Positions 1,043 to 30,768 of a stretch of DNA of 32,969 nt are shown piece after piece. How positions within the stretch are numbered: position 1 is the stretch's first letter; each line of letters opens with the position of its first letter. Below the pieces are notes generated by a model. It was not told where the DNA came from. It made no database searches and saw only the letters and a list, made by a program, of their open reading frames with translations. Location: IMG/VR virus record IMGVR_UViG_3300031802_000304, positions 1-32,969 of that record. One strand, written 5' to 3'. The DNA comes from a virus (Duplodnaviria > Caudoviricetes). Made by a program: the position numbers and the translations under genes.

Positions 1043-1072
1043 GGTTGCCCCTTCGGGGGCAACCCTTTTTTT
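1043..1072 (+). terminator. Rho-independent terminator
   Basis: Perfect 9-bp stem GGTTGCCCC/GGGGCAACC closing a c(TTCG)g tetraloop, followed by C and T7, 18 bp after the stop of 344..1024. Confidence 0.95.
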
Positions 1073-1092: not shown

Positions 1093-1689
1093 ATGGAGGT
1101 AGATACAGTAATAATCATCACGACTCTGCTAAGTTTTGCTGGCGGGTTAGTCTCTTGGATTATCTTCAGGGTTGTCAAGCCCACCATGAAATTCATAAAT
1201 AAACACGAAGATCTAGCCAGTTCAGTAGAAACGATTAAACAGGAGATCACCACTAATGGTGGCGGTAGCCTCAAAGACGTTGTTTGCAAACTTGGGGAAT
1301 CCTGTGATAGGATAGAACACGGACAAAAAATTATTGAACAAAGAACCAAGGCTTCTCTACACTACAATTCAACAGCCTTATTTGAAACCGACAGCAAAGG
1401 AAAGGCAGTTTGGACTAATGAACCATTTTATGAGCTAACCGGGCAACATCTTCCCGATGTAGAAGGTTATGACTGGCTTGCCTATGTCCACGAAGAAGAT
1501 AGGGAAGAGCTTTTTATGGATTTTCAATCTTGTCTTGATCTGAGCAGAAAATTCCAAAGAGAAGTTAAAACATTTGACGACAAGAGGGTAAGGATGCTGG
1601 GCTTTCCCTATAAGCTCAACGGTGACGAGCAAGGAGGCTTTTTAGTAAGTGTATCTGAAATCACAATAAGAGAGGTAAACAATGGATAA
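1093..1689 (+). CDS. Membrane protein: N-terminal TM helix, coiled coil with NGGGSLKD motif, and C-terminal PAS domain
   Basis: Hydrophobic residues ~6-26. The TNGGGSLKDVV motif resembles small phage lysis-cassette membrane proteins. PAS signature: ALFETDSKGKAVWTNEPFYELTG...GYDWLAYVHEEDRE. Confidence 0.8.
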   Translation: MEVDTVIIITTLLSFAGGLVSWIIFRVVKPTMKFINKHEDLASSVETIKQEITTNGGGSLKDVVCKLGESCDRIEHGQKIIEQRTKASLHYNSTALFETDSKGKAVWTNEPFYELTGQHLPDVEGYDWLAYVHEEDREELFMDFQSCLDLSRKFQREVKTFDDKRVRMLGFPYKLNGDEQGGFLVSVSEITIREVNNG

Positions 1690-1933
1690 TTCCAAAGCAT
1701 TTTCACTGAACGTTCACGATTTTAAGAAGCTGGGCTGGAACGGTTTCATGGTAGGACTGGCCGCTGGCCTCACCTTCCTTGGGTCTAACCTAATGTCGTT
1801 AGATCTTGGCCTGACTGGCGCTGTTGCTATTCCCATCGTGACTATTCTGCTAAACGCAGCGGTCCAATGGGCCAAGAATAACCACATGGCAGATGAAGTC
1901 ATTCCTCCGCCTCCTGCACCACCTGCGGAGTAA
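1682..1933 (+). CDS. Small 2-TM holin-like membrane protein
   Basis: 83 aa with two hydrophobic segments (GFMVGLAAGLTFLG; LTGAVAIPIVTILLNAAV) and a short Pro-rich tail. Overlaps the upstream gene; GAGG RBS. Confidence 0.55.
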   Translation: MDNSKAFSLNVHDFKKLGWNGFMVGLAAGLTFLGSNLMSLDLGLTGAVAIPIVTILLNAAVQWAKNNHMADEVIPPPPAPPAE

Positions 1934-1954: not shown

Positions 1955-2476
1955 ATGGCCAAAAAAAGCCTTACGGAAATGAAGTTTGGTTTAGCTACCA
2001 TAATTCCTTGGTCGCTTGTTCTTGTTCTTGGTACTGCGTCTGTGTCAGAACATGCCATTTCGTTGTTTCACTCTCAAGAAGTAGTTGACAACAACTCCGA
2101 CGAACCGGAACCGGAACCAGACAACGAAGAGGAAATCAAAGCGAAAGCGATTGCTGCCGCGTTAAGCAAGGTGCATGAAGAGTTTGTTAAAATAGAGAGC
2201 GAAGAAGACAAAGTAATAATCTACAAACTTTTCTCAGGCAGCGCTGAATATCTAAATAACTCTGTATCTCTTGAAGACACCAGCCAGTTTGACCCCATTC
2301 TTGGGAGGGCACAAACAAGCTATGGCTGGAACAGAGAATCTTATCCTGACTTTACCCAGTCTGTATCTGACTACCTAGTTGTGGTTGGATACGATGAGTC
2401 TAGAAAGCTGGACACCCAAGAAGCAAGAGAGTGGTTTCAAGGCGTCTTTGAATCTTTAGCGGAGGCGACTAGATAG
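1955..2476 (+). CDS. Hypothetical protein with N-terminal membrane anchor/signal and acidic EPEPEP linker
   Basis: Basic N-terminus followed by hydrophobic FGLATIIPWSLVLVLG, then a Pro/Glu linker and a helical domain. AAGGGG RBS. Confidence 0.7.
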   Translation: MAKKSLTEMKFGLATIIPWSLVLVLGTASVSEHAISLFHSQEVVDNNSDEPEPEPDNEEEIKAKAIAAALSKVHEEFVKIESEEDKVIIYKLFSGSAEYLNNSVSLEDTSQFDPILGRAQTSYGWNRESYPDFTQSVSDYLVVVGYDESRKLDTQEAREWFQGVFESLAEATR

Positions 2477-3379
2477 ATGGCTGATTTATCACACCTTGGT
2501 GGGTGGATAAAAGATCCACATGCAGTAGAAGCAGCAATGAATTCTTTGCCACACCCCGTGTTTCAAGACTCTTGGGGTCCGATGAAAGATTCAGGAAGGA
2601 ATAAAGTCTGCTTATTGTATAGTTATATTAAAGAAGTAGCAGGTAAAGTTCCTATCAGGATTCAAACTGTAGGAGATTGCGTAGCTCAGGGGGCAGCTTA
2701 TGCGGTAGATGCTTCCAAATGTGTAGATATTGTTGTTAACAATGAACGTGAGGAATGGGTAGCAGAAACTGCCACTGAGGATATATATGGAGGGTGTAGA
2801 GTGCAGATAGGCGGGGGGAGTGTCAAAGGAGACGGCGCTTACGGCGTATGGGGTGCTAGATACTGCAACGAATATGGGGCAGTGCCTCGTGGTAAATATG
2901 GCAATGTTGACCTAAGAGAATATAGCGGTTCTAAAGCTAGAAGCTGGGGTATGCCATCAGGTGGAGTTCCTAAAAGCCTGTTGAAAATCTCTAAGCAACA
3001 TCCTATACTCACAGTTTCAAGAGTTGATTCCTATGAGCAGGCTAGAGACCTCCTTGCTAATGGTTATGCTATTACTGTATCCAGCAATCAAGGCTTCAGT
3101 TCCCGAAGAGATTCAGAAGGTTTTGCTAAACCCAAAGGCGAATGGGCACACCAGATGTGCTTACTCGGAGTTGATGACAAATACAAGAGGCCCGGAGTTC
3201 TGTGCATGAATTCTTGGGGGGTTTGGAACGCTGGTCCGAAGCGTAATGATCAACCAGACGGATCTTTTTGGATCGACGCAGACGAGGTAGAACGAAGCAT
3301 GCTCAAGGTAGGAGACTGCTGGGCTTTCAGTGGATACGAAGGATTCAAACCCAGAAAGCTTGATACGAGGATCATATAA
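2477..3379 (+). CDS. Papain-like (clan CA, C1-type) cysteine peptidase
   Basis: Oxyanion Gln and catalytic Cys (IQTVGDCVAQG), catalytic His (WAHQMCLLG), Asn motif (MNSWG) and a downstream G-x-FWI. No signal peptide. Confidence 0.85.
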   Translation: MADLSHLGGWIKDPHAVEAAMNSLPHPVFQDSWGPMKDSGRNKVCLLYSYIKEVAGKVPIRIQTVGDCVAQGAAYAVDASKCVDIVVNNEREEWVAETATEDIYGGCRVQIGGGSVKGDGAYGVWGARYCNEYGAVPRGKYGNVDLREYSGSKARSWGMPSGGVPKSLLKISKQHPILTVSRVDSYEQARDLLANGYAITVSSNQGFSSRRDSEGFAKPKGEWAHQMCLLGVDDKYKRPGVLCMNSWGVWNAGPKRNDQPDGSFWIDADEVERSMLKVGDCWAFSGYEGFKPRKLDTRII

Positions 3380-4071
3380 TGAGACACTTTGCAATTGTTG
3401 TATCGCTGCTTCTGGTGCTAGGTTGTTATAGTCAGCAAGAGCCAAAACAAGAGACTGGGTTCGATCATGCTCGCAATGAAGGCTATGTTGCGTTTATTGT
3501 AAACGAAATCAAAAAAGACGTGCCGCCAGACCCAGAACCACAACCAGACCCTGACCCTGAAAAGTGTGCCTGCAAAGGGACCGGCATTATCACTCACGGA
3601 GATGGACACACAACTCCCTGTCCCTATCATGGAGAAGGTGCTGCTTCTTCGCGCCAGTGGAGATGTCGATGCGACACTGATGAAACATACTGTGACTGTA
3701 AAAACGTACACAGCAAATGTAGCTGTAAAAAAAAAATAGTAGTCCATCTGGACAGAAAGAGAGGGCATACTGTATCAATGCAAGAACTCGGCAAGGCTTA
3801 TGATGTTCTCAACAGTCTTTTTTCAAAGAAGGGGTATCGAGCAGGAGAGTATTTGCTAAAGTCAGACCTCCCGATGGTAGTAAAAATATCATCCCCAGAA
3901 CATGGCTTGATAGATATAGATTTCGTAGACGAGAAACCACAGATTTCTGTTAAGAAAATATTTACTATCAAGATTGATGTGTTAGGCATTTCTCTAGGGG
4001 AATCTGGGGGTGTCGTAAAGCTTGACAACTTCCCAGACAAGTCTTTTGACTACGAAGAGGACCAAGGATAG
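3379..4071 (+). CDS. Predicted lipoprotein with Pro linker and Cys-rich (CxC repeat) segment
   Basis: Lipobox-like MRHFAIVVSLLLVLG-C, PPDPEPQPDPDPE linker, and CAC, CP, CRC, CDC, CSC motifs. Confidence 0.7.
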   Translation: MRHFAIVVSLLLVLGCYSQQEPKQETGFDHARNEGYVAFIVNEIKKDVPPDPEPQPDPDPEKCACKGTGIITHGDGHTTPCPYHGEGAASSRQWRCRCDTDETYCDCKNVHSKCSCKKKIVVHLDRKRGHTVSMQELGKAYDVLNSLFSKKGYRAGEYLLKSDLPMVVKISSPEHGLIDIDFVDEKPQISVKKIFTIKIDVLGISLGESGGVVKLDNFPDKSFDYEEDQG

Positions 4072-4431
4072 ATGCATTTCTCAAAAATACGACAAGAAAT
4101 AGGTTCTAAATATAAAAAGAAGAAAGATCAGAAAATTGCAGAGAAATGTTTGCAACTTGGCGAGGAATGGACTAGAATAGTAAGCGGAGGATTCGCTGAC
4201 TTCAACAGGTTCAAAGTCCCCGCAGGGGCAGACCCCAAGAAATACAAAAGAGAGCTTGCAAAGGAGTGCAAGCTGTACATTAAGGACAGCTTAAGCGAAG
4301 ATGATGTAAAGAGCTACTTCCCCGTAGTATGGATTGTGCCGTTTGTTGTCCAAATCTTTCTAGGCACTGTAATTAGCTGGATAGCCAGAAGACTACTTGA
4401 TGACCTATTTGAAAAAAACAATGAAGTATAG
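4072..4431 (+). CDS. Hypothetical protein with C-terminal TM helix
   Basis: 119 aa, Lys-rich N-terminus, hydrophobic FPVVWIVPFVVQIFLGTVISWIA. Abuts the upstream stop. Confidence 0.7.
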   Translation: MHFSKIRQEIGSKYKKKKDQKIAEKCLQLGEEWTRIVSGGFADFNRFKVPAGADPKKYKRELAKECKLYIKDSLSEDDVKSYFPVVWIVPFVVQIFLGTVISWIARRLLDDLFEKNNEV

Positions 4432-4470: not shown

Positions 4471-4497
4471 GCCACGGCCACTAGGTCGTGGCTTTTT
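4471..4497 (+). terminator. Rho-independent terminator
   Basis: Stem GCCACGGCC/GGTCGTGGC (one G-U pair), loop ACTA, followed by T5. Confidence 0.8.
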
Positions 4498-17070: not shown

Positions 17071-18318
17071 ATGCTGGATTTAGATTTTAATAGGCGTGAT
17101 TTTTTGAGGGTTGGTGGTCTTGGCGCTGGACTGGGGGTTCTTCCGTTCTCTGACGAAGCCTTCGCAGAAGAAGAATTCATTATCCCGAGCCAAAAATCCG
17201 TAGTGTGGGTTTGGTTGGGCGGAGGTCCGACACAGTTCGAGACCTTCCATGCTCCTACTGACACAGTCCCAGACACACACATGCCGGTCACGGGATCAGT
17301 AACGCATAATAACGGACTTGCTTTTGGTGGTTTGTTTAAAGAATTGATCAAGCAGGGAGACCATCTTACCGCCGTAAATTCCTTCTCTCACGGAGACTCT
17401 TCTCACAGACAGGCCACACACTGGATGATGACGGGACACCGCAATCCCAAGAGGGAGAACACCGCTGACTCTGAATATCCCGGTCATGGAGCTATTGCCT
17501 CTTCTGTGTTTGGCTCTAACCATCCCACTAACGGCATGCCAGCTTATGTCAAGCAGGGCAAGATCGAGGGTGAGCAGCCAACGTTCTTGGGCGGAGCGCA
17601 TAAGCCTTTTGATCCATCCAATAAAGATAACCTTACACCAAGAGTTCCTGTCATCCGCTTTTCGGAGAGAAAAGAATTGCTAGGAGCTTTAGACAGAGTG
17701 GATAGGGTTTACTCCAGAGAGGCAGATTCATTCGCCAAGATTGGCAATACTGCATACAATGTTATCCTTGGTAATGCGAAGGAGGCATTTGATCTTGACA
17801 AAGAACCTGAAGCTATGCGAGAAATGTATGGCAAGGGTGGCATTGGCGACCAAATGTTGCTGGCTCGTAGACTTTCTCAGTTTGGCACCAAGTTTGTTAC
17901 GATTCACTACGGCGGTTGGGATATGCACGGCAATATCAAGAAGGCATTAGAGGGAAAGGTTCCCCCGCTTGACAAGGCCCTTGCCGCCTTTGTAAAAGAC
18001 ATCCACCAAAGCGGCATGTCTGACAACACCCTGCTTGTAGTTACTGGAGAATTTGGTAGGACCAGACTTAACGCTAACTCTGGTCGTGATCACTGGCCAT
18101 CCATTACTCCCATGCTTATGTCCGGGGGTAAGTATAACCACGGCAGAGTGATTGGTTCTGCGGACAAGGCGTACTACCCGAAGGTAGGCAAGGTTGGCCC
18201 ACTAGATGTGGCCGCAACCTTGTTTGATCATTTCGGAATTCCCAAAGAAATCCAGAGGACAGACCAAGGTGGTCGTCCACGATATCTGCTTGAGGGAGAC
18301 GGAAAGGTTATTCTGTGA
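17071..18318 (+). CDS. DUF1501-family (alkaline phosphatase/sulfatase-like fold) protein with twin-arginine-like N-terminus
   Basis: NRRDFLRVG, WLGGGPTQFETF, GGWDMH, TGEFGRT, GRDHWP, GRVIG. AAGGAGG RBS. Confidence 0.88.
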   Translation: MLDLDFNRRDFLRVGGLGAGLGVLPFSDEAFAEEEFIIPSQKSVVWVWLGGGPTQFETFHAPTDTVPDTHMPVTGSVTHNNGLAFGGLFKELIKQGDHLTAVNSFSHGDSSHRQATHWMMTGHRNPKRENTADSEYPGHGAIASSVFGSNHPTNGMPAYVKQGKIEGEQPTFLGGAHKPFDPSNKDNLTPRVPVIRFSERKELLGALDRVDRVYSREADSFAKIGNTAYNVILGNAKEAFDLDKEPEAMREMYGKGGIGDQMLLARRLSQFGTKFVTIHYGGWDMHGNIKKALEGKVPPLDKALAAFVKDIHQSGMSDNTLLVVTGEFGRTRLNANSGRDHWPSITPMLMSGGKYNHGRVIGSADKAYYPKVGKVGPLDVAATLFDHFGIPKEIQRTDQGGRPRYLLEGDGKVIL

Positions 18319-18962: not shown

Positions 18963-19000
18963 AGTGTAAGCCGATTTGAAATTTAACATTGAAGGACACT

Positions 19001-20656
19001 ATGGACTGGGCACCACTCTGCAACTATACGCATTATAGTCTGCTAAAGGGCTTCTCTAAGCCTGACGAACTGGCTAAAAAATGTAGCGAAAATGGATATA
19101 AGGCTTGCGGGATTACCGACTACAAGTCTATCTCTGGCGCTGTATCCTTCTACCAAGCCTGTATCAAGCACGGCATCAAACCCATCATAGGCTGTGCTTT
19201 CGATCAGTTCACCCTTCTTGCCAAGAACAAAGAGGGTTGGAACGATCTCATAGAACTGGTTTCCTCTCTTGATACTGATGGCAATATACCCACACACGAA
19301 TCTAAGCGTATCTTTGACAATAGAAACCTCGTCTGCATTGCTTCTAAAAAATATCCCGCACTAGGCGAGGACTCTTATGCTGAGTCTCCAGCAATGCCCA
19401 GTTCGTACTACACAAACCGAGAAGACGCTTCTCTTCACAGAGTTTTACTTAGCTCCGACCTTAAGACCACCCTGCCCAAGATACAAAAAAAGCTTAAGCG
19501 TGGAGAGCTATCAGCAGATGTAGAAAAGCTCTTTACCCACGACGACTTTTATTTACACAGTAAGGAAGAAATCACAGAATCTCTACTGAACGAATGTTCT
19601 TACGAGCAAGTGTCTGAGGTAACGGAGATCATTAATAAGTGCGGACATTATGACATCCTATGCAAGCCACGATTGCCAGAGTTCTCATGCCCTGACGGCC
19701 AGCCGGAAGAAGAAATGTTGACCGACCTTTGTCGCGTGGGATGGAGGCAGCTTCTTTCGGATACAGGCAAGGTCGATGACCCAGAAGATAAAGAGGTATA
19801 CAAAGCAAGGTTTGAAGAAGAGCTTAGTGTTATCAAGGAAGCTAATCTGTTTGGATATTTTCTTGTAGTGTGGGACATTATCCGTTTTGTAAACGAAAAG
19901 GGTTGGCTATCTGGTCCGGGCCGTGGGTCTGCCGCCGGATGCCTACTGTCATACCTGATGGGCATAACAAAAATTGATCCTATTGAATATGATTTGCTTT
20001 TCGAGAGGTTCTACAACAAGGGTAGAAATACAGACGGACACATCTCATTGCCTGACATTGATATAGACGTACCCGGAAAAAAACGCGACGAGATTATTGA
20101 ATACCTGAAGGATAAATATGGACATGATAATGTTAGCCAGATGATTACCTTTGGCAGGCTTCAGGGCCGTAGCGCACTAAAAGAAGTCTTACGCATCAAT
20201 GAGGCGTGCTCGTTTGGCGAGATGAATGAAATAACAAGGAGCATACCCAACGAGGCAGATATTTCAGACCAACTTCAAGAGATGGATGACGAGGACAGAT
20301 CTATCATTAGATGGGCACTCATCAATCATGCAGATGAACTGAGAGGCTTTTGCTTTATCAACGATTACGGAGAACTCGATGGCGACTATGCAGAGTTCTT
20401 TGACCAAGCAATCCGTATGGAAGGAACCTTTAAGTCTCAGGGAAAGCACCCTGCCGGGATAGTTATCTCACGAGACAGATTGAGAAGCGTATGTCCAATG
20501 GTAGACCAAAGGAGTGGTAACGAAAAGATTGCAGGACTAGAAATGAGTGACCTAGAAAGCTTAGGCCACGTCAAGTTCGATGTACTAGGGATTAATCTGT
20601 TGGATAAAATTATGAAAATTCAGGATATATTAGAGGAGTCTTGTCATGGCGAATAG
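19001..20656 (+). CDS. dnaE: DNA polymerase III alpha, N-terminal half (PHP + palm/thumb)
   Basis: YSLL.G, GIKPIIG, GPGRGSAAG, LLFERF, PDIDID, KHPAG, KFDVLG. ATG 19001 follows an AAGGA RBS; track start is TTG 18989. Confidence 0.92.
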   Translation: MDWAPLCNYTHYSLLKGFSKPDELAKKCSENGYKACGITDYKSISGAVSFYQACIKHGIKPIIGCAFDQFTLLAKNKEGWNDLIELVSSLDTDGNIPTHESKRIFDNRNLVCIASKKYPALGEDSYAESPAMPSSYYTNREDASLHRVLLSSDLKTTLPKIQKKLKRGELSADVEKLFTHDDFYLHSKEEITESLLNECSYEQVSEVTEIINKCGHYDILCKPRLPEFSCPDGQPEEEMLTDLCRVGWRQLLSDTGKVDDPEDKEVYKARFEEELSVIKEANLFGYFLVVWDIIRFVNEKGWLSGPGRGSAAGCLLSYLMGITKIDPIEYDLLFERFYNKGRNTDGHISLPDIDIDVPGKKRDEIIEYLKDKYGHDNVSQMITFGRLQGRSALKEVLRINEACSFGEMNEITRSIPNEADISDQLQEMDDEDRSIIRWALINHADELRGFCFINDYGELDGDYAEFFDQAIRMEGTFKSQGKHPAGIVISRDRLRSVCPMVDQRSGNEKIAGLEMSDLESLGHVKFDVLGINLLDKIMKIQDILEESCHGE

Positions 20657-21323
20657 AGATTTTATTGTATTTGACTTTGAAACTGGTTCGCGTAATCCGC
20701 ACAGAACCCAGCCCACTCAGCTAGCAGCCGTGGCTCTAGATGGGAGGAATCTAAAACTCAAGGGCACTTTCAATAGCGAGATTAGGCCCATACTCAGTGA
20801 CAAAAAGGCTGAGGAGGCTGGTCTAGACCCCTTGGAAGACGAAGCCCTGCGTATTACAGGCAAGACTAGAGAAGAATTAAAGAAAGCTCCGACACTAAGA
20901 TCGGTATGGAAAAAATTCCATCAATTTGTTGATCAATATAACTGGAAAGGCACGCAGTGGTTTGCCCCCATACCCGTAGGGTGGAACATCATAGGGTTTG
21001 ATATGGTTATTGTGAACCGGCTATGCAAAGAATACGGGCCGTTTAATACAGACAGGGAGCAGCAAAAACTATTTCACGCGATTTACAAAATAGATATGAT
21101 GGACAATTACTTTATGTGGACTGAGGGAGACCCCTCTGTGAAGTCGATTAGCATGGATGCCACCCGTGAACGTATGGGCCTTAGCAAAGAAAATGCTCAC
21201 GACGCACTTCAAGACGTTAAAGACTGCGGAAACATAATGATTAAATTCTTGAAGACACATAGATCTGTTTACCAAAACTTGAAGCTTGATAAGGCATTTG
21301 CAAATGGAAACCTGTATATCTAA
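20646..21323 (+). CDS. DEDDh 3'-5' exonuclease (DnaQ/epsilon-like)
   Basis: ExoI DFETG, ExoII GWNIIGFD, ExoIII HDALQD. Own GAGGAG RBS. Confidence 0.9.
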   Translation: MANRDFIVFDFETGSRNPHRTQPTQLAAVALDGRNLKLKGTFNSEIRPILSDKKAEEAGLDPLEDEALRITGKTREELKKAPTLRSVWKKFHQFVDQYNWKGTQWFAPIPVGWNIIGFDMVIVNRLCKEYGPFNTDREQQKLFHAIYKIDMMDNYFMWTEGDPSVKSISMDATRERMGLSKENAHDALQDVKDCGNIMIKFLKTHRSVYQNLKLDKAFANGNLYI

Positions 21324-22902
21324 GCCTAATACAGACCTAGTAATTGATTACGATTGCGACACAACTTGGGGTCTGTTCAGAGATGGCAAAACAAAAGGAG
21401 TATTTCAACTTGAAAGCAACCTTGGAAAATCTTGGTCCAAAAAGCTAAAGCCTTCTAGCATTGAAGAGCTTGCTGCTCTCATAGCTTTAATACGTCCCGG
21501 CTGTCTCAAGGCTATCCAAGATGGCAAGTCGATGACCCAAAGATATGTTGATAGGAAAAGAGGTATTGAGGAGGTCACCTGTCTAGACCCGTCTCTTGAA
21601 GAGATTCTAAATCCCACATACGGAGTGTTGGTATACCAAGAACAGTCCATGAGGATTGCCCAAAAGATTGCGGGGTTCAACCTACAAGAGGCAGACGTTC
21701 TCAGAAAAGCCATTGGAAAAAAGAAGGCTGGACTCATGGCACAAGTCAAGAGTTCTTTCCTAGGAGGCGCAGAAAATAAAGGGATCGTTACTAATGATAT
21801 TGCAGAAGAAATTTTTAGCTGGATTGAAAAATCTTCTCGCTATTCATTTAACAAATCTCACGCTGTAGCCTACGCGATGTGCTCCTACTGGAGCGCCTAC
21901 CAGAAGGCACACCATACCAATGAATTCTTTTTGTCCTATCTGTATTTTGCTAATGAGAAACAAAATCCTCATGAAGAAATATACGAACTGGTAACAGAAG
22001 CTAAGCTTTTTGATTTAGAAACCAAGACCCCCAACATCACCAGCTTCTCCGAAAAATTCAACATAAAAGATAGTACTATATACTTTGGTATAAAGGATAT
22101 TAAATCTTTGTCTGGCAAATCAGGAGATAAAGCCATTCAGGCTGTATGCGATTTAAAATCTGAGCTTCGAAAGCCCATAAGCGACTGTACGTGGATGGAG
22201 ATACTACTATATTTTTCTCCGAAGGTGAACTCGACTGCCTTCAAAGCTCTTTCTTCTGTGGGGTTCTTCAGGGGATTTAAGGACAAAGTTACCAGAAACG
22301 AAGCTCTATATCAGTACAGTATTTACAGGACATTGACAAAAGCTGAGACCAAGTGGGCTGAGGAACACTACCCCAAAAAACAGTGGAAGAACTTTTCAGA
22401 TTGCCTTAGAGATTTAGCTCCCCTGAAGAAGGAGGGCGGCGGAACACACCGTGTGGATCGTAGTCAGATTGTTTTAAACGAGCTTTACTTATTAGAGAAT
22501 CCTCCCTATGCATTATCAGATGACCCCGGATGGGTGATAGACCAAGAGGTAAGGCTGTTAGGGTGTCCCGTCTCTATGTCTAGAATAGAAACGTCAGATA
22601 CGTCTGCCGCTAACACGACCTGCAAGGAAATACTCAATGGAAAGACTGGAAGCGGCCTGTGCATATGTGGAAACTTGAAGAAGATGTCAGACTATAAGAT
22701 TACCAAAGGCGAATCAAAAGGAAAGTACATGGCCTTCTTGACTATAGAAGATGAAACCTGTTCCCTAGACGGAGCAATTGCCTTCCCAGACGTAAGAGAG
22801 AAGAACAAGTATATATTATATGAAGGAAACAATCTAGTTCTGTGCGGCAGTGTTAAACGAGGAGACAATTCCTTCATAGTTAACAGAATTCACGAGATTT
22901 AA
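21304..22902 (+). CDS. dnaE: DNA polymerase III alpha, C-terminal half (fingers, HhH, OB fold)
   Basis: GVFQLES, ALIRPG, TYGVLVYQEQ, ADVLRKAIGKKK, YSFNKSHAVAY, FGIKDIK, MAFLTIED. Probable ATG at 21304. Confidence 0.92.
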   Translation: METCISKPNTDLVIDYDCDTTWGLFRDGKTKGVFQLESNLGKSWSKKLKPSSIEELAALIALIRPGCLKAIQDGKSMTQRYVDRKRGIEEVTCLDPSLEEILNPTYGVLVYQEQSMRIAQKIAGFNLQEADVLRKAIGKKKAGLMAQVKSSFLGGAENKGIVTNDIAEEIFSWIEKSSRYSFNKSHAVAYAMCSYWSAYQKAHHTNEFFLSYLYFANEKQNPHEEIYELVTEAKLFDLETKTPNITSFSEKFNIKDSTIYFGIKDIKSLSGKSGDKAIQAVCDLKSELRKPISDCTWMEILLYFSPKVNSTAFKALSSVGFFRGFKDKVTRNEALYQYSIYRTLTKAETKWAEEHYPKKQWKNFSDCLRDLAPLKKEGGGTHRVDRSQIVLNELYLLENPPYALSDDPGWVIDQEVRLLGCPVSMSRIETSDTSAANTTCKEILNGKTGSGLCICGNLKKMSDYKITKGESKGKYMAFLTIEDETCSLDGAIAFPDVREKNKYILYEGNNLVLCGSVKRGDNSFIVNRIHEI

Positions 22903-26100: not shown

Positions 26101-27600
26101 ATGTTTGAAGGATACAGAGGGAGGAATTATATAAATGGAACGTGGAGGAAGTGCGACAGGACTTTCTCTAAAATAGACCCATGCACCGAGAAAGAGATGA
26201 GTCTTTTCCCACAGTCATATGACTACTGCGTTAAGGAGGCTTGTGACTCTGCCAGCAATGCTTTTAAGGGATGGAGAAGTCTCAGTCGTATCAAGCGTGC
26301 AGAGTATCTCTTACGTGTATCTCAGATTTTAGAAAGGGACTTGGAAAAATTCGCCACAGCGATTTCAGAAGAAACAGGCAAGAATTATAACGAGTCAGTA
26401 GCTGAGGTAAACGAAGCCCTCCACATGGCTCAATATGCATTTGGTACGGGACGTATGCCGCATGGAGAAGCACTAGCTTCTGAAATTCCAGATAAGGATG
26501 CTTACATGCTACGTAAGCCGAAGGGTGTAGTGGCAATTATCAGTCCTTGGAATTTCCCTCTGGCTATCGGTGCATTCTGGTGTGCCGCCCCCGCTTTGGT
26601 TGAAGGCAATACTGTTGTTATTAAGCCTAGTGAAGACGCTCCTCTCAGCACAGAGCTTGCAGTCAAAGCCTATGAAGAAGCTGGTATCCCAGCAGGTGTT
26701 ATCAATCTGGTTCACGGGGACGGAGATGTAGGAGACCATTTAGCTAATGGTGACGTTGATCATATTTGTTTTACCGGAAGTGCAGAGGTTGGTCAATACA
26801 TCAGAAGAGTCTGTGCAGATAGCTGGCATAAGACATGCTCTTGCGAAATGGGTAGCAAGTCAGCCGTAATTGTATTCGATGATGCCAATTTCGAGCTTGC
26901 TGTTTCTGCCAGCATAGCAAGTGCATTCAAGCTTTCGGGGCAACGATGTGTTTCTGCTGGACGACTGATTGTACAGAGAGGAATATATGAAAGATTTTCT
27001 GAAAGCTTTTCCGAGTATGCCAGTCAGACATCTTTTGGTAAGCCCTTCTTTAAGGACGCTCTCTTAACTAAGCAGCAACCTAACGTTCTATCCCACATGG
27101 GTCCAATTATTAATGAGCAACAGTTTAACAGGGTGTTGAAATTTAATGAGATGGTTAGAGACGACAGCGAGGCTACAGTATTAGTAGATTCTGTACATGC
27201 CAACCCCGGATATTTTGTTTCTCCGATGGTCTACAAGACAGAGTGGAGAGACGCACCCTATCTAAAGAAGGAGGTTTTTGGCCCACACGTTGCTATCATT
27301 CCATTTGATGATATTGACCACGCTATTAATATTTACAACGACACCGACTATGGTCTGTCGGTAGGAATAATTACGGAAAACTTTAAGGTAGCAAGGAGGA
27401 TGCGTGATGAATGTGATTATGGCCTTGGCTATTGGAACGGTGGGAGTATTGCTGCTGAGAGTCATTTGGGATTCGGCGGAGTGAAGAAGTCTGGTAACGG
27501 ATTTCCCTCTGCCGCTAGAACTGTACAAGCCGTGACCCACGAAGTGTCATGGACTGTTAACCATGATGATCGGCTTAGTTTTCCGCAGGGAATGAAATGA
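26101..27600 (+). CDS. NAD(P)-dependent aldehyde dehydrogenase (semialdehyde dehydrogenase-like)
   Basis: SPWNFP, KPSE, FTGS, catalytic Glu (CEMGSK), catalytic Cys (GQRCVS), EVFGP, YGLS, FGGVKKSGNG. Confidence 0.95.
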   Translation: MFEGYRGRNYINGTWRKCDRTFSKIDPCTEKEMSLFPQSYDYCVKEACDSASNAFKGWRSLSRIKRAEYLLRVSQILERDLEKFATAISEETGKNYNESVAEVNEALHMAQYAFGTGRMPHGEALASEIPDKDAYMLRKPKGVVAIISPWNFPLAIGAFWCAAPALVEGNTVVIKPSEDAPLSTELAVKAYEEAGIPAGVINLVHGDGDVGDHLANGDVDHICFTGSAEVGQYIRRVCADSWHKTCSCEMGSKSAVIVFDDANFELAVSASIASAFKLSGQRCVSAGRLIVQRGIYERFSESFSEYASQTSFGKPFFKDALLTKQQPNVLSHMGPIINEQQFNRVLKFNEMVRDDSEATVLVDSVHANPGYFVSPMVYKTEWRDAPYLKKEVFGPHVAIIPFDDIDHAINIYNDTDYGLSVGIITENFKVARRMRDECDYGLGYWNGGSIAAESHLGFGGVKKSGNGFPSAARTVQAVTHEVSWTVNHDDRLSFPQGMK

Positions 27601-28400
27601 AAAGAATACTAGTTTGTGATCCAGAATTTTTTGATATCCGATATGAGATAAATTCTTGGATGAATACTGAGAACAAAGTGGACGGGATAAAAGCTCGGAC
27701 ACAGTGGGACGGAATGATAGACTGTCTTGTAGATAGTGGGGCCAGAATAGAACATATACAACCAGACCCCAACTTTCCCGACATGGTTTTTACCGCCAAC
27801 GCGGGGTTAGTTAGGGGGAACAGAGTGGTTCTTTCTAACTTTCGCCACAAAGAGAGGAGAGGAGAAAGAGATCTTTTCAAGCGGTGGTTCTTAGATCGAG
27901 ATTATGACGTTATTGAATTGCCGGAAGATATATCCTTTGAAGGCGCGGGAGACGCAATGTTTTTTAACGACGTGCTTTTCATTGGGTGTGGATTAAGGAC
28001 GAATCGAAGATCGCATCCCATTATAGCCGAAGCTCTAGGGGTAGATTATGTCTCTTGCGATCTAGTTAACCCTTATTTTTATCACTTAGACACCTGTTTG
28101 TTCACGACAGATGATCAGTTCGTCTACTATGACGAAGCCTTTACGCATTCTTCATTGCACGAAATGCTAACCAAGGTTATAGAAGTCACTATGAAAACCA
28201 ACAACAGTGTTAGTATACACCCGGTAAATACGGCTCAAGCAAAACAGTTTATATGCAACAGCATAAAAGTTCAGCACAGGACAACCACCCACGCATACAA
28301 CCATGACGGTGTTTTCTCTAGCGTACATACGTTCAATTGTGACGTGTCCGAATTTATAAAATCTGGAGGAGCAGTCAAATGTCTAACTCTCGAATTATAG
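27597..28400 (+). CDS. Guanidino-group-modifying (amidinotransferase fold) enzyme resembling the arginine dihydrolase domain of ArgZ/AgrE
   Basis: YEINSWM, PDMVFTANAG, HKERRGE, FEGAGD, FYHLDTC, EFIKSGGAVKCLTL (catalytic Glu/His/Cys). Confidence 0.85.
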   Translation: MKRILVCDPEFFDIRYEINSWMNTENKVDGIKARTQWDGMIDCLVDSGARIEHIQPDPNFPDMVFTANAGLVRGNRVVLSNFRHKERRGERDLFKRWFLDRDYDVIELPEDISFEGAGDAMFFNDVLFIGCGLRTNRRSHPIIAEALGVDYVSCDLVNPYFYHLDTCLFTTDDQFVYYDEAFTHSSLHEMLTKVIEVTMKTNNSVSIHPVNTAQAKQFICNSIKVQHRTTTHAYNHDGVFSSVHTFNCDVSEFIKSGGAVKCLTLEL

Positions 28401-29590
28401 AAAGTCTTTCAAAGCATGTGCTTACAGACGGTTTTCACATTGTCGTAGATACAGACAAAAGTGAAGGGTCTTGGATTGTGGATGTCGAAACCGGAAATAA
28501 ATACCTCGATTGCTATTCCCAGTTTGCCAGCCAAGCTTTGGGATGGAACCATCCTGCTCTTGTCAATGCTCAATTTCGCTTAGGGAAGGTGGCTATGCAC
28601 AAATTAGCCAACAGCGACATGTACTCAAAAGAGTATCACAATTTTGTTGAAAGGTTCGTATCTATTACCCCTGACTTCAGCCATTACTTCTTTATTGAGG
28701 GTGGTGCTTTAGGGGTTGAGAACGCTTTGAAGGCTGCGTTTGATTGGAAGGCACAAAAACTAGGCATCTCTTCTAGTGAGGCTACAAACAAAATGGATGT
28801 AGCCCATATGTACAGAGCTTTTCATGGTCGCACTGGATACACCCTGTCAACGACAAACACTGATACGATTAAAACCAAAAGATTTCCACAGTTTAACTGG
28901 ACAACCATGTTTGATGTGGACACTTTGGGTCAGTACATTAATGATAATACAGCAGCAATTTTGTTAGAACCCATCCAAGGAGAAGGTGGAGATAACCATT
29001 TTAACGAAGCAGTTTTTACAGAACTCAGATACCTAGCAGATAAACACGAAGCCATGCTCATCTTTGACGAGGTTCAAACGGGTCTAGGACTAACTGGCAA
29101 GATGTGGGCATACGAACACTTCGGCGTCATTCCTGACATGATGTGCTTTGGAAAGAAAACTCAGGTGTGTGGATTTTGTTCTACTGAGCGTATTGATGAA
29201 GTTAAGTTCAACGTGTTTAATACCAGCGGGAGGATAAATTCCACTTGGGGTGGAAACATCGTAGACATGTCAAGATTCTGCTGTATCATTGACACCATAG
29301 AAGCAGAAAACTTGGTGTATAATGCCCAAAGCGTAGGAAGACATCTATTGTGGAGTTTACGATCTATTGAGGGTCTAGATAATGTAAGGGGCAGAGGCTT
29401 AATGGTTGCCTTTGATCTTAAAGATGGCAAAGAGAGAGATACACTTATGGAAGCAATTCAACACCGCATGATAGCTTTGAAGTGCGGTCACAAATCTATT
29501 CGTCTAAGACCAGTCCTTACCTTTTCCACAGAAGATGTTGATATGGCATCTTCTATTATAAAACAAGCTGTGGATGAGATGGGGAAATGA
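28379..29590 (+). CDS. lat: L-lysine 6-(epsilon)-aminotransferase-like class III PLP aminotransferase
   Basis: LAT-type motifs: K.ANSDMYS, FFIEGGALGVENALKAAFDWK, AFHGRTGYTLS.TNT, EPIQGEGGD.HF, FDEVQTG, FGKKTQVCG, RINSTWGGN. Confidence 0.9.
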   Translation: MSNSRIIESLSKHVLTDGFHIVVDTDKSEGSWIVDVETGNKYLDCYSQFASQALGWNHPALVNAQFRLGKVAMHKLANSDMYSKEYHNFVERFVSITPDFSHYFFIEGGALGVENALKAAFDWKAQKLGISSSEATNKMDVAHMYRAFHGRTGYTLSTTNTDTIKTKRFPQFNWTTMFDVDTLGQYINDNTAAILLEPIQGEGGDNHFNEAVFTELRYLADKHEAMLIFDEVQTGLGLTGKMWAYEHFGVIPDMMCFGKKTQVCGFCSTERIDEVKFNVFNTSGRINSTWGGNIVDMSRFCCIIDTIEAENLVYNAQSVGRHLLWSLRSIEGLDNVRGRGLMVAFDLKDGKERDTLMEAIQHRMIALKCGHKSIRLRPVLTFSTEDVDMASSIIKQAVDEMGK

Positions 29591-29679
29591 AACAATGGGC
29601 GCTTGGGCTTTAATATTGGCTTTTTTACTGTACCTTGCACAGTAGCTCTGGAGATGGTTAACAACATGAAAGGTAACAC

Positions 29680-30768
29680 ATGAGAGCGGCAATAGTGGGA
29701 ACAGGAAGAATGGGGCGAGCCATAGCTTGGGCTATGGACAAACTGGGATGTAAAAAGTTCACCTTAATAGACACCGATGTAGAAAATCTGATAGATTGTT
29801 CTCAAGTGTCGGAATCAGTAGATGACTGGAACTCAGGCTATAGAGTCCTAGCAATTCAATGCGACGAGTACAACCCTGATTACTCTGCCCTGTCAAGCTG
29901 CGATATAGTTATTTCTGCCTTGCCTTACCACCAGAACGAAAAGCTAGCTAGATATTGCATAAACCAGAATATTCCCTATTGTGATCTAGGTGGCCACATG
30001 AGTACCAGCAATAGCATTAATGACTATGCCAAAAACAAAGGCTCGGTTGTTATGACCGATTTAGGATTGGCTCCGGGGTGGGTTAACATATTGGCAGAAC
30101 ATGGATACAACTCTAGCCGAGATCTACCCGAAACAGTAGAAATGATGGTGGGAGGACTTCCCGCAAATCCGAATAACTATCTAAAATACAGTTGCACTTG
30201 GTCACACGACGGATTGATAAATGAATACAAAGACCAATGCGAGGTATTAATCAATGGGTTTAATACTCTGGCTGCTGGCATGTCTGGTCTTGTGGACATA
30301 GATACCTCCCTCGGTCCAATGGAGGCATTTTATACTAGTGGGGGTGCTTCCCACACAATAGGCACCATGCAAAAAAGAGGGGTTAACAACTGTCATTATA
30401 AAACGATCAGACACAAAGGTCATTGCGAAGTCATGAAGTTTCTAATTGAGGAATGCGGTCTTAGTAACGAAGACCTGTCAGGTCTGCTAAATAAAGCGTG
30501 CCCTCCCGCAGACGACTTAGTAATCATCAAGGCTAAAGTAGACAAGTGGGAAGAAGAAAAGATTATCAGATGCAATAAGAAATTTTCAGCTATGCAGATG
30601 GCTACAGCTTTTCCTGTATCAGTAGTGGCCACGATGATTGCCAACCACGTCGGCCACACATATCGGACTGGCCCACTGGCCTATAAAGACATCTCTTACG
30701 ATATATTTGAACAGAACTTAGATTTTCTTTTTACGGAAGCAAACAATGAGCCAGAATCAAGTAACTAA
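29680..30768 (+). CDS. Saccharopine dehydrogenase / lysine 6-dehydrogenase family oxidoreductase
   Basis: Rossmann GTGRMG, SALPY, CDLGG, LGLAPG, VGGLP, WSHDGLINEY, EAFYTSGG, YKTIRHKGH. Confidence 0.88.
   Translation: MRAAIVGTGRMGRAIAWAMDKLGCKKFTLIDTDVENLIDCSQVSESVDDWNSGYRVLAIQCDEYNPDYSALSSCDIVISALPYHQNEKLARYCINQNIPYCDLGGHMSTSNSINDYAKNKGSVVMTDLGLAPGWVNILAEHGYNSSRDLPETVEMMVGGLPANPNNYLKYSCTWSHDGLINEYKDQCEVLINGFNTLAAGMSGLVDIDTSLGPMEAFYTSGGASHTIGTMQKRGVNNCHYKTIRHKGHCEVMKFLIEECGLSNEDLSGLLNKACPPADDLVIIKAKVDKWEEEKIIRCNKKFSAMQMATAFPVSVVATMIANHVGHTYRTGPLAYKDISYDIFEQNLDFLFTEANNEPESSN

Follow-up and report, generated by a model that had tools for sequence, protein, structure and literature searches.

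The window, by which we mean the whole 32,969-nucleotide stretch analysed here, comes from an uncultured aquatic phage and is a linear virus record (IMGVR_UViG_3300031802_000304) estimated to be about 22% complete; it carries phage replication and nucleotide genes, and its relatives are 145-167 kb long and 94-100% complete. A block of six genes on the plus strand is bracketed in it by terminator-like hairpins at 1043-1064 and 4471-4492. The upstream hairpin, with the T run that follows it (1043..1071), resembles an intrinsic terminator and lies just 5' of the first gene of the block, and a hairpin with a T4 run precedes this gene in 32 of the 52 distinct intergenic stretches of the clade; 8 terminator-like sites were observed, against 3.9 expected in shuffles. 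The block opens with a gene for a 198-aa protein made of a transmembrane (TM) helix, a helical stalk and a PAS domain (1093..1689), followed by one for an 83-aa protein with two hydrophobic segments and the size and layout of a holin (1682..1933, with GAGGT upstream at 1672-1676). Then come a 173-aa protein of no family with an N-terminal hydrophobic anchor or signal (1955..2476), a papain-like (C1A) cysteine protease (2477..3379), a 230-aa lipoprotein-like ORF (3379..4071) and, last in the block, a 119-aa protein with a C-terminal hydrophobic segment (4072..4431). The 230-aa ORF corresponds to two separate genes in several relatives, and may possibly have arisen by their fusion.

Before the block, positions 344-1024 encode a 226-aa Gly/Ala/Thr-rich protein of no family behind a sigma-like gene; 65 of 66 loci have this gene 5' of the TM-PAS gene. 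Eleven consecutive G residues (1078-1088) stand just ahead of the start codon of the TM-PAS gene; the run is the same in the twin contig L005 and, that contig excepted, has no counterpart in the other relatives shown.

A search for homologues of the 198-aa protein, covering lengths of 108-347 aa, found 292; 66 viral loci were fetched, the window's twin among them, with 52 distinct PAS sequences. The best TM segment of the protein spans residues 6-24 (1108..1164; hydropathy 2.2). Lysine and arginine are more abundant on the C-terminal side of this helix in 63 of 63 clade sequences and in 96 of 98 wider members, so that the positive-inside rule predicts an N-out/C-in topology with the PAS domain facing the cytoplasm. 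In the AF2 model (pLDDT 82.9), two helices (3-54 and 58-90) are broken at the motif NGGGSLKD (residues 55-62, 1255..1278) and lead into a five-strand PAS fold (95-189); the putative coiled coil of the earlier note would correspond to these long helices. The PAS domain (residues ~92-190, 1366..1662) is also recognised by Pfam (PAS_3, 27.9 bits with a cut-off of 25.6; PAS, 23.7 with a cut-off of 22.6), and VIA ranks the PAS domain of NifL first (115 residues superposed at rmsd 2.9), the top matches being PAS and LOV domains and the closest solved folds those of sensor-kinase PAS domains. As the protein ends about 9 residues past the last PAS strand, it has no output domain. Hydropathy, Pfam, AF2 and VIA together bear out what an earlier note had read from the sequence: a single TM helix, a stalk with NGGGSLKD and a PAS domain without output. 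Bacterial PAS sensors (NifL, FixL, LOV, Aer) share with this protein the fold and the N-terminal helix leading into PAS (Z 13.6), but the window protein lacks their kinase, cyclase or DNA-binding output and its nearest Atlas clusters are 99-100% viral.

All three parts of the protein are under purifying selection, with dN/dS values over 18 unsaturated pairs of 0.11 (TM), 0.04 (stalk) and 0.09 (PAS). The best 120 of the 292 homologues are 164-255 aa long; this uniform length, in a search open to 108-347 aa, and the low PAS value rule out a truncated kinase relic. Residues N55, G57, S59, K61 and D62 of the motif are invariant in the 63 clade sequences, as are W107, N109, W128, R137, R152, P172 and Y173 of the PAS domain and C147 in its long helix 134-150, this cysteine being Ala in 63% of the wider family. 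The signature of LOV domains is a motif of the GxNCRFLQ type. It is absent from the clade alignment, which rules out a LOV light sensor; there is no invariant His inside the PAS domain, and no LOV, heme or FAD cofactor signature was recognised in the PAS alignments of the clade or of the wider family. One could picture a lysis protein whose PAS domain is ligand-free and, by doing no more than dimerise or dock other proteins, gives lysis a fixed clock. The missing LOV motif and His, the replacement of C147 outside the clade and the existence of PAS-less proteins in the same genomic slot (see below) are in keeping with this. We nevertheless hold it to be very unlikely: the many invariant PAS residues could equally well line a ligand site or form a docking surface, and phages of great diversity have retained the fusion (E<=1e-10 in 698 clusters, some of them perhaps plain PAS matches).

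In the clade, 65 of 66 loci have the gene for the 83-aa protein directly 3' of the TM-PAS gene; in the exception (L021), a different 60-aa two-segment protein takes the partner slot. In the window the two ORFs overlap, as the earlier note had stated, by 8 nt, but elsewhere a gap of 0-27 nt separates them (63 of 64 measured loci) and an overlap recurs only in the window's twin. It is therefore the coupling that is conserved, and the overlap is ruled out as a conserved feature. A reciprocal search starting from the 83-aa gene found the TM-PAS gene directly upstream in 53 of 61 loci. Of the remaining eight, six keep the flanking genes but enclose between them a single-TM protein that is unrelated and has a charged tail, one locus breaks off, and in the last the 83-aa gene stands at another place in the block. 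PAS-less single-TM proteins occupy the slot at L246:2162-2473, L284:2168-2473, L261:1526-1846, L254:299-688 and L266:1437-1706, with weak family matches. What the slot needs seems to be a one-TM helical protein, PAS being optional, and such unrelated occupants imply that the PAS domain is dispensable for the slot's job.

The 83-aa protein had been described as a two-TM protein; two hydrophobic segments are indeed present, the first of them weak (hydropathy maxima of 1.54 and 1.97). None of 43 members of its family matched the holin families of Pfam and PHROGs. In the Atlas, r1t holin is the named cluster closest to it (0.89), which we treat as no more than a lead, and the family's own profile lends no support to a relation with the r1t holin Che8 gp34, 40 of 300 shuffles scoring as high. 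The term holin-like is thus a prediction from size, layout and company, not from homology. On an unrelated contig (L139), a remote homologue of the 83-aa protein lies right behind a PAS-less NGG gene (15.4 bits, 0 of 300 shuffles as high, E 1.3e-4), with no endolysin seen near this pair. This was the sole match of the profile in 5, then 14 records of other lineages, and when the profile was run against 13 other small membrane proteins L139 alone was clearly above shuffles. A complex prediction for residues 1-192 of the TM-PAS protein and 1-70 of its partner, with alignments for both, gave a score of 0.00 (mark 0.32), which speaks neither for nor against contact between them.

Four endolysin-related families were found in none of 17 clade records, whereas the positive controls were found, and six further such families in none of five near-complete clade records. 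In one complete clade genome, no endolysin, holin or spanin was detected at E<=1e-4 among 133 of the 153 ORFs of at least 100 aa (the other 20 were either replication genes already seen in the window or ORFs on the opposite strand); rIIA/rIIB-like genes were found in it. A lysin of some unrecognised family may be present. The best candidate for the lytic enzyme of the clade is the papain-like protease at 2477-3379. Its catalytic set is intact (Q63, C68, H225 and N245 are invariant), and the best match in a fold search is xylellain (E 1.8e-10), while phmmer against PDB gave nothing useful. Of the 66 stretches fetched, 46 contain the gene; it is missing from the other 20 and from 5 partial records. 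These absences rule out that the cassette always includes it, and in L110 a subtilase (L110:6074-7009; Peptidase_S8, E 3e-34) takes its place a little way behind the TM-PAS/2-TM pair. The protease ORFs of L033 and L062 are enlarged to 680 and 651 aa, with similar lengths in L254, L266 and L283. We take the enlargement to be an insertion resembling an intein; it falls precisely at the catalytic cysteine, which suggests that the protease matters to the phage.

Fusions of this kind extend far beyond the clade. A wider profile search retrieved the 698 clusters mentioned above, and the NGG motif is present in 125 of the best 150 matches. Neither the window protein nor one distant member had a tblastn match among 50,697 GenBank phages, so that no cultured carrier was found by sequence. 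A viral fold search with the model of 1093-1689 gave matches in the cultured Cellulophaga phages phi18:3 (S0A2B2) and phi19:1 (R9ZZL0), and also matched phage GAF proteins. To define lineages, loci, one set of them drawn from 14 of the 64 parts of the collection, were clustered at 42% identity, giving 40 clusters, 39 of them outside the window clade; four of 65 new pattern loci had been dropped (L200 has stop codons in its N-terminal part, and L225-L227 have no matching ORF). Neighbourhoods were scanned on the same strand over ~2.2 kb, for one representative per cluster and a few extra members.

Among these 39 lineages, 13 have an endolysin or spanin within 2.2 kb, one occupies a T7 holin slot, 8 have only unnamed small membrane or lipoprotein neighbours and 17 have no lysis context. 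By the earlier note, its reading would be refuted if homologues occurred mostly without holin-like neighbours: they do not in the clade, and partly do in the wider family. A peptidoglycan hydrolase is near the gene in 12 representatives and belongs to one of several enzyme families: lysozyme (L087, L179), SLT (L216), Hydrolase_2 (L219), M15 peptidase (L095, L178, L201, L222), or CHAP, NlpC or PG-binding (L077, L079, L088, L206). NlpC or CHAP genes can also be tail enzymes. In L201 the cassette consists of an M15 peptidase, a 2-TM gene and a spanin-like gene. The thirteenth lineage has a spanin pair in L071, and a 3-TM holin with an M15 endolysin in its cluster mate L182. The hydrolase is the very next gene in 9 representatives. 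Binomial p values are 4e-4 for the 13 of 39 and 2e-5 for the 9 adjacent cases, taking base rates of 0.12 and 0.04 that were assumed, not measured. In the L181 group the gene lies between a 791-aa ORF without family match and the T7-type small and large terminases, which is the position of the T7 holin gene gp17.5.

Such arrangements raise the possibility that the TM-NGG-PAS protein is itself a hole-forming single-TM holin with a cytoplasmic regulatory domain, the 83-aa protein then being an accessory or an antiholin. In L077, L087, L179, L206, L216, L219 and L222 the gene directly precedes the hydrolase and the ORF lists contain no separate small 2-TM gene; the gp17.5 position is filled in the L181 group; class III holins of the T4 type are matched weakly in fold searches (E 0.047 and 0.11); and LysF1b, a single-TM lysis protein of an actinophage, supports lysis triggering alone (PMC13056207, as far as its accessible part goes). 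ORF lists can miss small genes, however, and the genomes in question may encode holins at other sites. In the window clade the TM-PAS gene hardly ever lacks a coupled 2-TM gene, and 17 of the 39 lineages are without lysis neighbours. We consider a holin function of the protein itself unlikely.

Those 17 lineages bear as well on the question of whether there is a lysis role at all. The genes concerned lie beside portal, RNR, DNA polymerase or tail genes, several of them in large phages. In the L073 group, L086, L089, L100 and L106, the TM-NGG-PAS gene stands between an HNH-like gene and the portal gene or comes next after ribonucleotide reductase, and no lysis gene is near it. The output-less PAS protein could then be a decoy for host sensor kinases, or serve virion assembly or superinfection exclusion, its position reflecting late-gene clustering; the clade's want of a recognisable endolysin and the sensor-kinase PAS domains among the closest solved folds would suit this. 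Against it, phages that are not related have the TM-NGG-PAS gene coupled directly, often with 4 nt of overlap, to hydrolases of unrelated families, the N-terminal half of its product has homology to lysis-cassette proteins, and large phages often scatter their lysis genes (PMC13056207, in the part available). The D29 gene lysA2b likewise lies outside the lysis cassette (bioRxiv 10.64898/2026.08.27.747656, in the part available). A function unrelated to lysis appears decidedly unlikely to us, and involvement in lysis, whatever its form, probable.

The N-terminal half of the 198-aa protein belongs to a widespread phage family of one-TM proteins. In a sample made up of 14 of the 64 parts of the collection, 45 of 80 loci encode PAS-less proteins with the same TM and NGG motif. 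One of these proteins, gp52 of Streptomyces phage mu1/6, comes after endolysin and holin, another, P1312_040 of a Thermobifida phage, lies directly before an amidase, and in L112 the order is CHAP endolysin, a small 2-TM membrane protein of 60 aa and the PAS-less NGG protein. The premise of the earlier note that TM-NGG proteins occur beside holins in lysis regions is thereby confirmed. Both mu1/6 gp52 and P1312_040 match PHROG 15431 'holin' (E 4e-5 and 1e-10), and the N-terminal profile of the window clade scores them at 21.4 and 18.7 bits.

A more remote link may lead to the actinophage protein LysF1b. An N-terminal profile of 98 wider members scores Che8 gp35 at 15.7 bits, a value reached by none of 2000 shuffles and none of 237 single-TM decoys, and aligns NGGxSLKD onto its NTHDTNMRDD stretch. 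Che8 gp35 is a DUF2746 protein 98.4% identical to NormanBulbieJr gp33, which is LysF1b (PMC13056207). The window clade's own N-terminal profile gives Che8 gp35 -0.9 bits, Pfam DUF2746 (PF10874) has no match to window residues 1-85 at E<=0.005, and PF10874 is not among the 25 families listed for the 98 wider members. The link is transitive and weak, and the protein is therefore not filed in DUF2746. The available part of PMC13056207 describes LysF1b as a one-TM N-out/C-in protein that activates an otherwise inert 2-TM protein, and the same 1-TM/2-TM logic, with a 1-TM protein that can trigger alone, is described for LysA2b/LysA2a of D29 in the available part of bioRxiv 10.64898/2026.08.27.747656. 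PMC13056207 reports, in the text available, no domain of high identity in LysF1b-like proteins, and its main text has 0 occurrences of 'NGG'.

With LysF1b/LysF1a of Girr and NormanBulbieJr (PMC13056207) and LysA2b/LysA2a of D29 (bioRxiv 10.64898/2026.08.27.747656), the window pair shares an N-terminal TM of predicted N-out/C-in orientation that basic residues follow, an extended helix, charged and predicted to be cytoplasmic (21 of 62 residues, or 34%, are D, E, K, R or H in residues 31-92, counted from the sequence; 30-50% marks the LysF1b type) and an adjoining small 2-TM gene; the weak similarity to LysF1b in the wider family's profile, with the NGGxSLKD motif aligned, may be a further tie. 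It differs from these pairs in the appended PAS domain and in length (198 aa vs 92-150 aa), in the gene order (1-TM, then 2-TM) and in having no DUF2746 match; moreover, profile comparison does not place the partner among the r1t-family holins, and lysin A and B are missing from the clade.

By analogy with LysF1a/LysF1b, the 198-aa protein would act within the membrane on its 83-aa holin-like neighbour, switching it on or setting its timing. Dimerisation would occur through the stalk and PAS domain, as general knowledge of PAS domains suggests, and a signal inside the cell would be received by the PAS domain and passed back up the stalk to the membrane, tuning burst time; this route is proposed because nothing follows the PAS domain. 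Burst timing would thus possibly answer a signal inside the cell. We give roughly even chances to this reading of the protein as a LysF1b-type regulator of a 2-TM holin-like partner, with PAS tuning the timing. The architecture, the purifying selection on three parts, the linkage to a 2-TM gene and the recurrence in classical lysis cassettes support it; the lack of a holin-family match, the lack of a canonical endolysin in the clade, the 17 of 39 lineages without lysis neighbours and the PAS-less substitutes count against it. The sensor-controlled holin regulator proposed in the earlier note therefore stands in part: TM-NGG-PAS genes do occur in classical lysis cassettes and the pairing is kept in 65 of 66 loci, but the gene at 1682 matches no holin family. 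A bolder version, in which a ligand-binding PAS domain has been grafted onto a one-TM regulator or holin so that a host metabolite, redox or nucleotide signal sets burst time, and in which the clade gates a papain-like protease replacing the muralytic endolysin, is more doubtful, and we put it forward tentatively.

If a LysF1b-like membrane protein does carry a PAS domain for this purpose, it would represent a direct cytoplasmic input to lysis timing and so touch on the long-standing question of how phages set their burst time. The regulators of phage lysis timing that came to our attention respond to membrane energy, to superinfection (T4 RI/RIII) or to partner proteins. The soluble domain of T4 holin T presumably has a GAF-like fold. 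T4 T with its antiholins RI/RIII (class IIIa) resembles the window protein in combining a single TM with a globular domain regulating lysis timing (PMC12894885, in the part available), but T is N-in/C-out with a periplasmic domain, whereas the window protein has a canonical PAS, predicted to be cytoplasmic. The two showed no sequence similarity, and the T4 holin is absent among the best 50 VIA matches listed for the 1093-1689 model. According to the same part of PMC12894885, phiKZ gp142, with its regulator gp143, is another lysis protein with a single TM and a large regulatory domain in the cytoplasm; it differs in being N-in/C-out, in having its soluble domain at the N-terminus and a separate soluble regulator, and no PAS is named there. 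Class III holins are defined as N-in/C-out (PMC12894885, same part), and N-out/C-in is predicted for 63 of 63 clade members.

The earlier note knew of no described system with this architecture, and no published description of a TM-NGG-PAS lysis protein was found in the literature on PAS domains and phage lysis, as judged from the listings of a search that covers few subscription papers. The 1-TM/2-TM pair is already known; in the literature searched, nothing corresponds to the PAS fusion, to its breadth or to the motif link. The NGGxSLxD segment may tie these aquatic phage proteins to recently characterised actinophage lysis regulators and offers a motif to mutate, and some homologues, being in compact cassettes with ordinary lysozymes or peptidases, make the proposal testable in E. 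coli.

Elsewhere in the window, positions 17071-18315 encode a DUF1501 protein with a TAT signal and with many close homologues (83-93%). The DUF1501 domain is found preferentially in the PVC group (PMC3542564, in the part available), so that the gene hints at a PVC-group host; the homologue search with it named no host. DNA polymerase III alpha is split in two ORFs with an exonuclease gene between them (18989-22902), a layout shared with G002. At 26101-30768, genes for an aldehyde dehydrogenase, a DDAH-like amidinohydrolase, a class III aminotransferase and a saccharopine-dehydrogenase-like protein lie amid glycosyltransferases, and together look like an amine or polyamine modification-like cluster.
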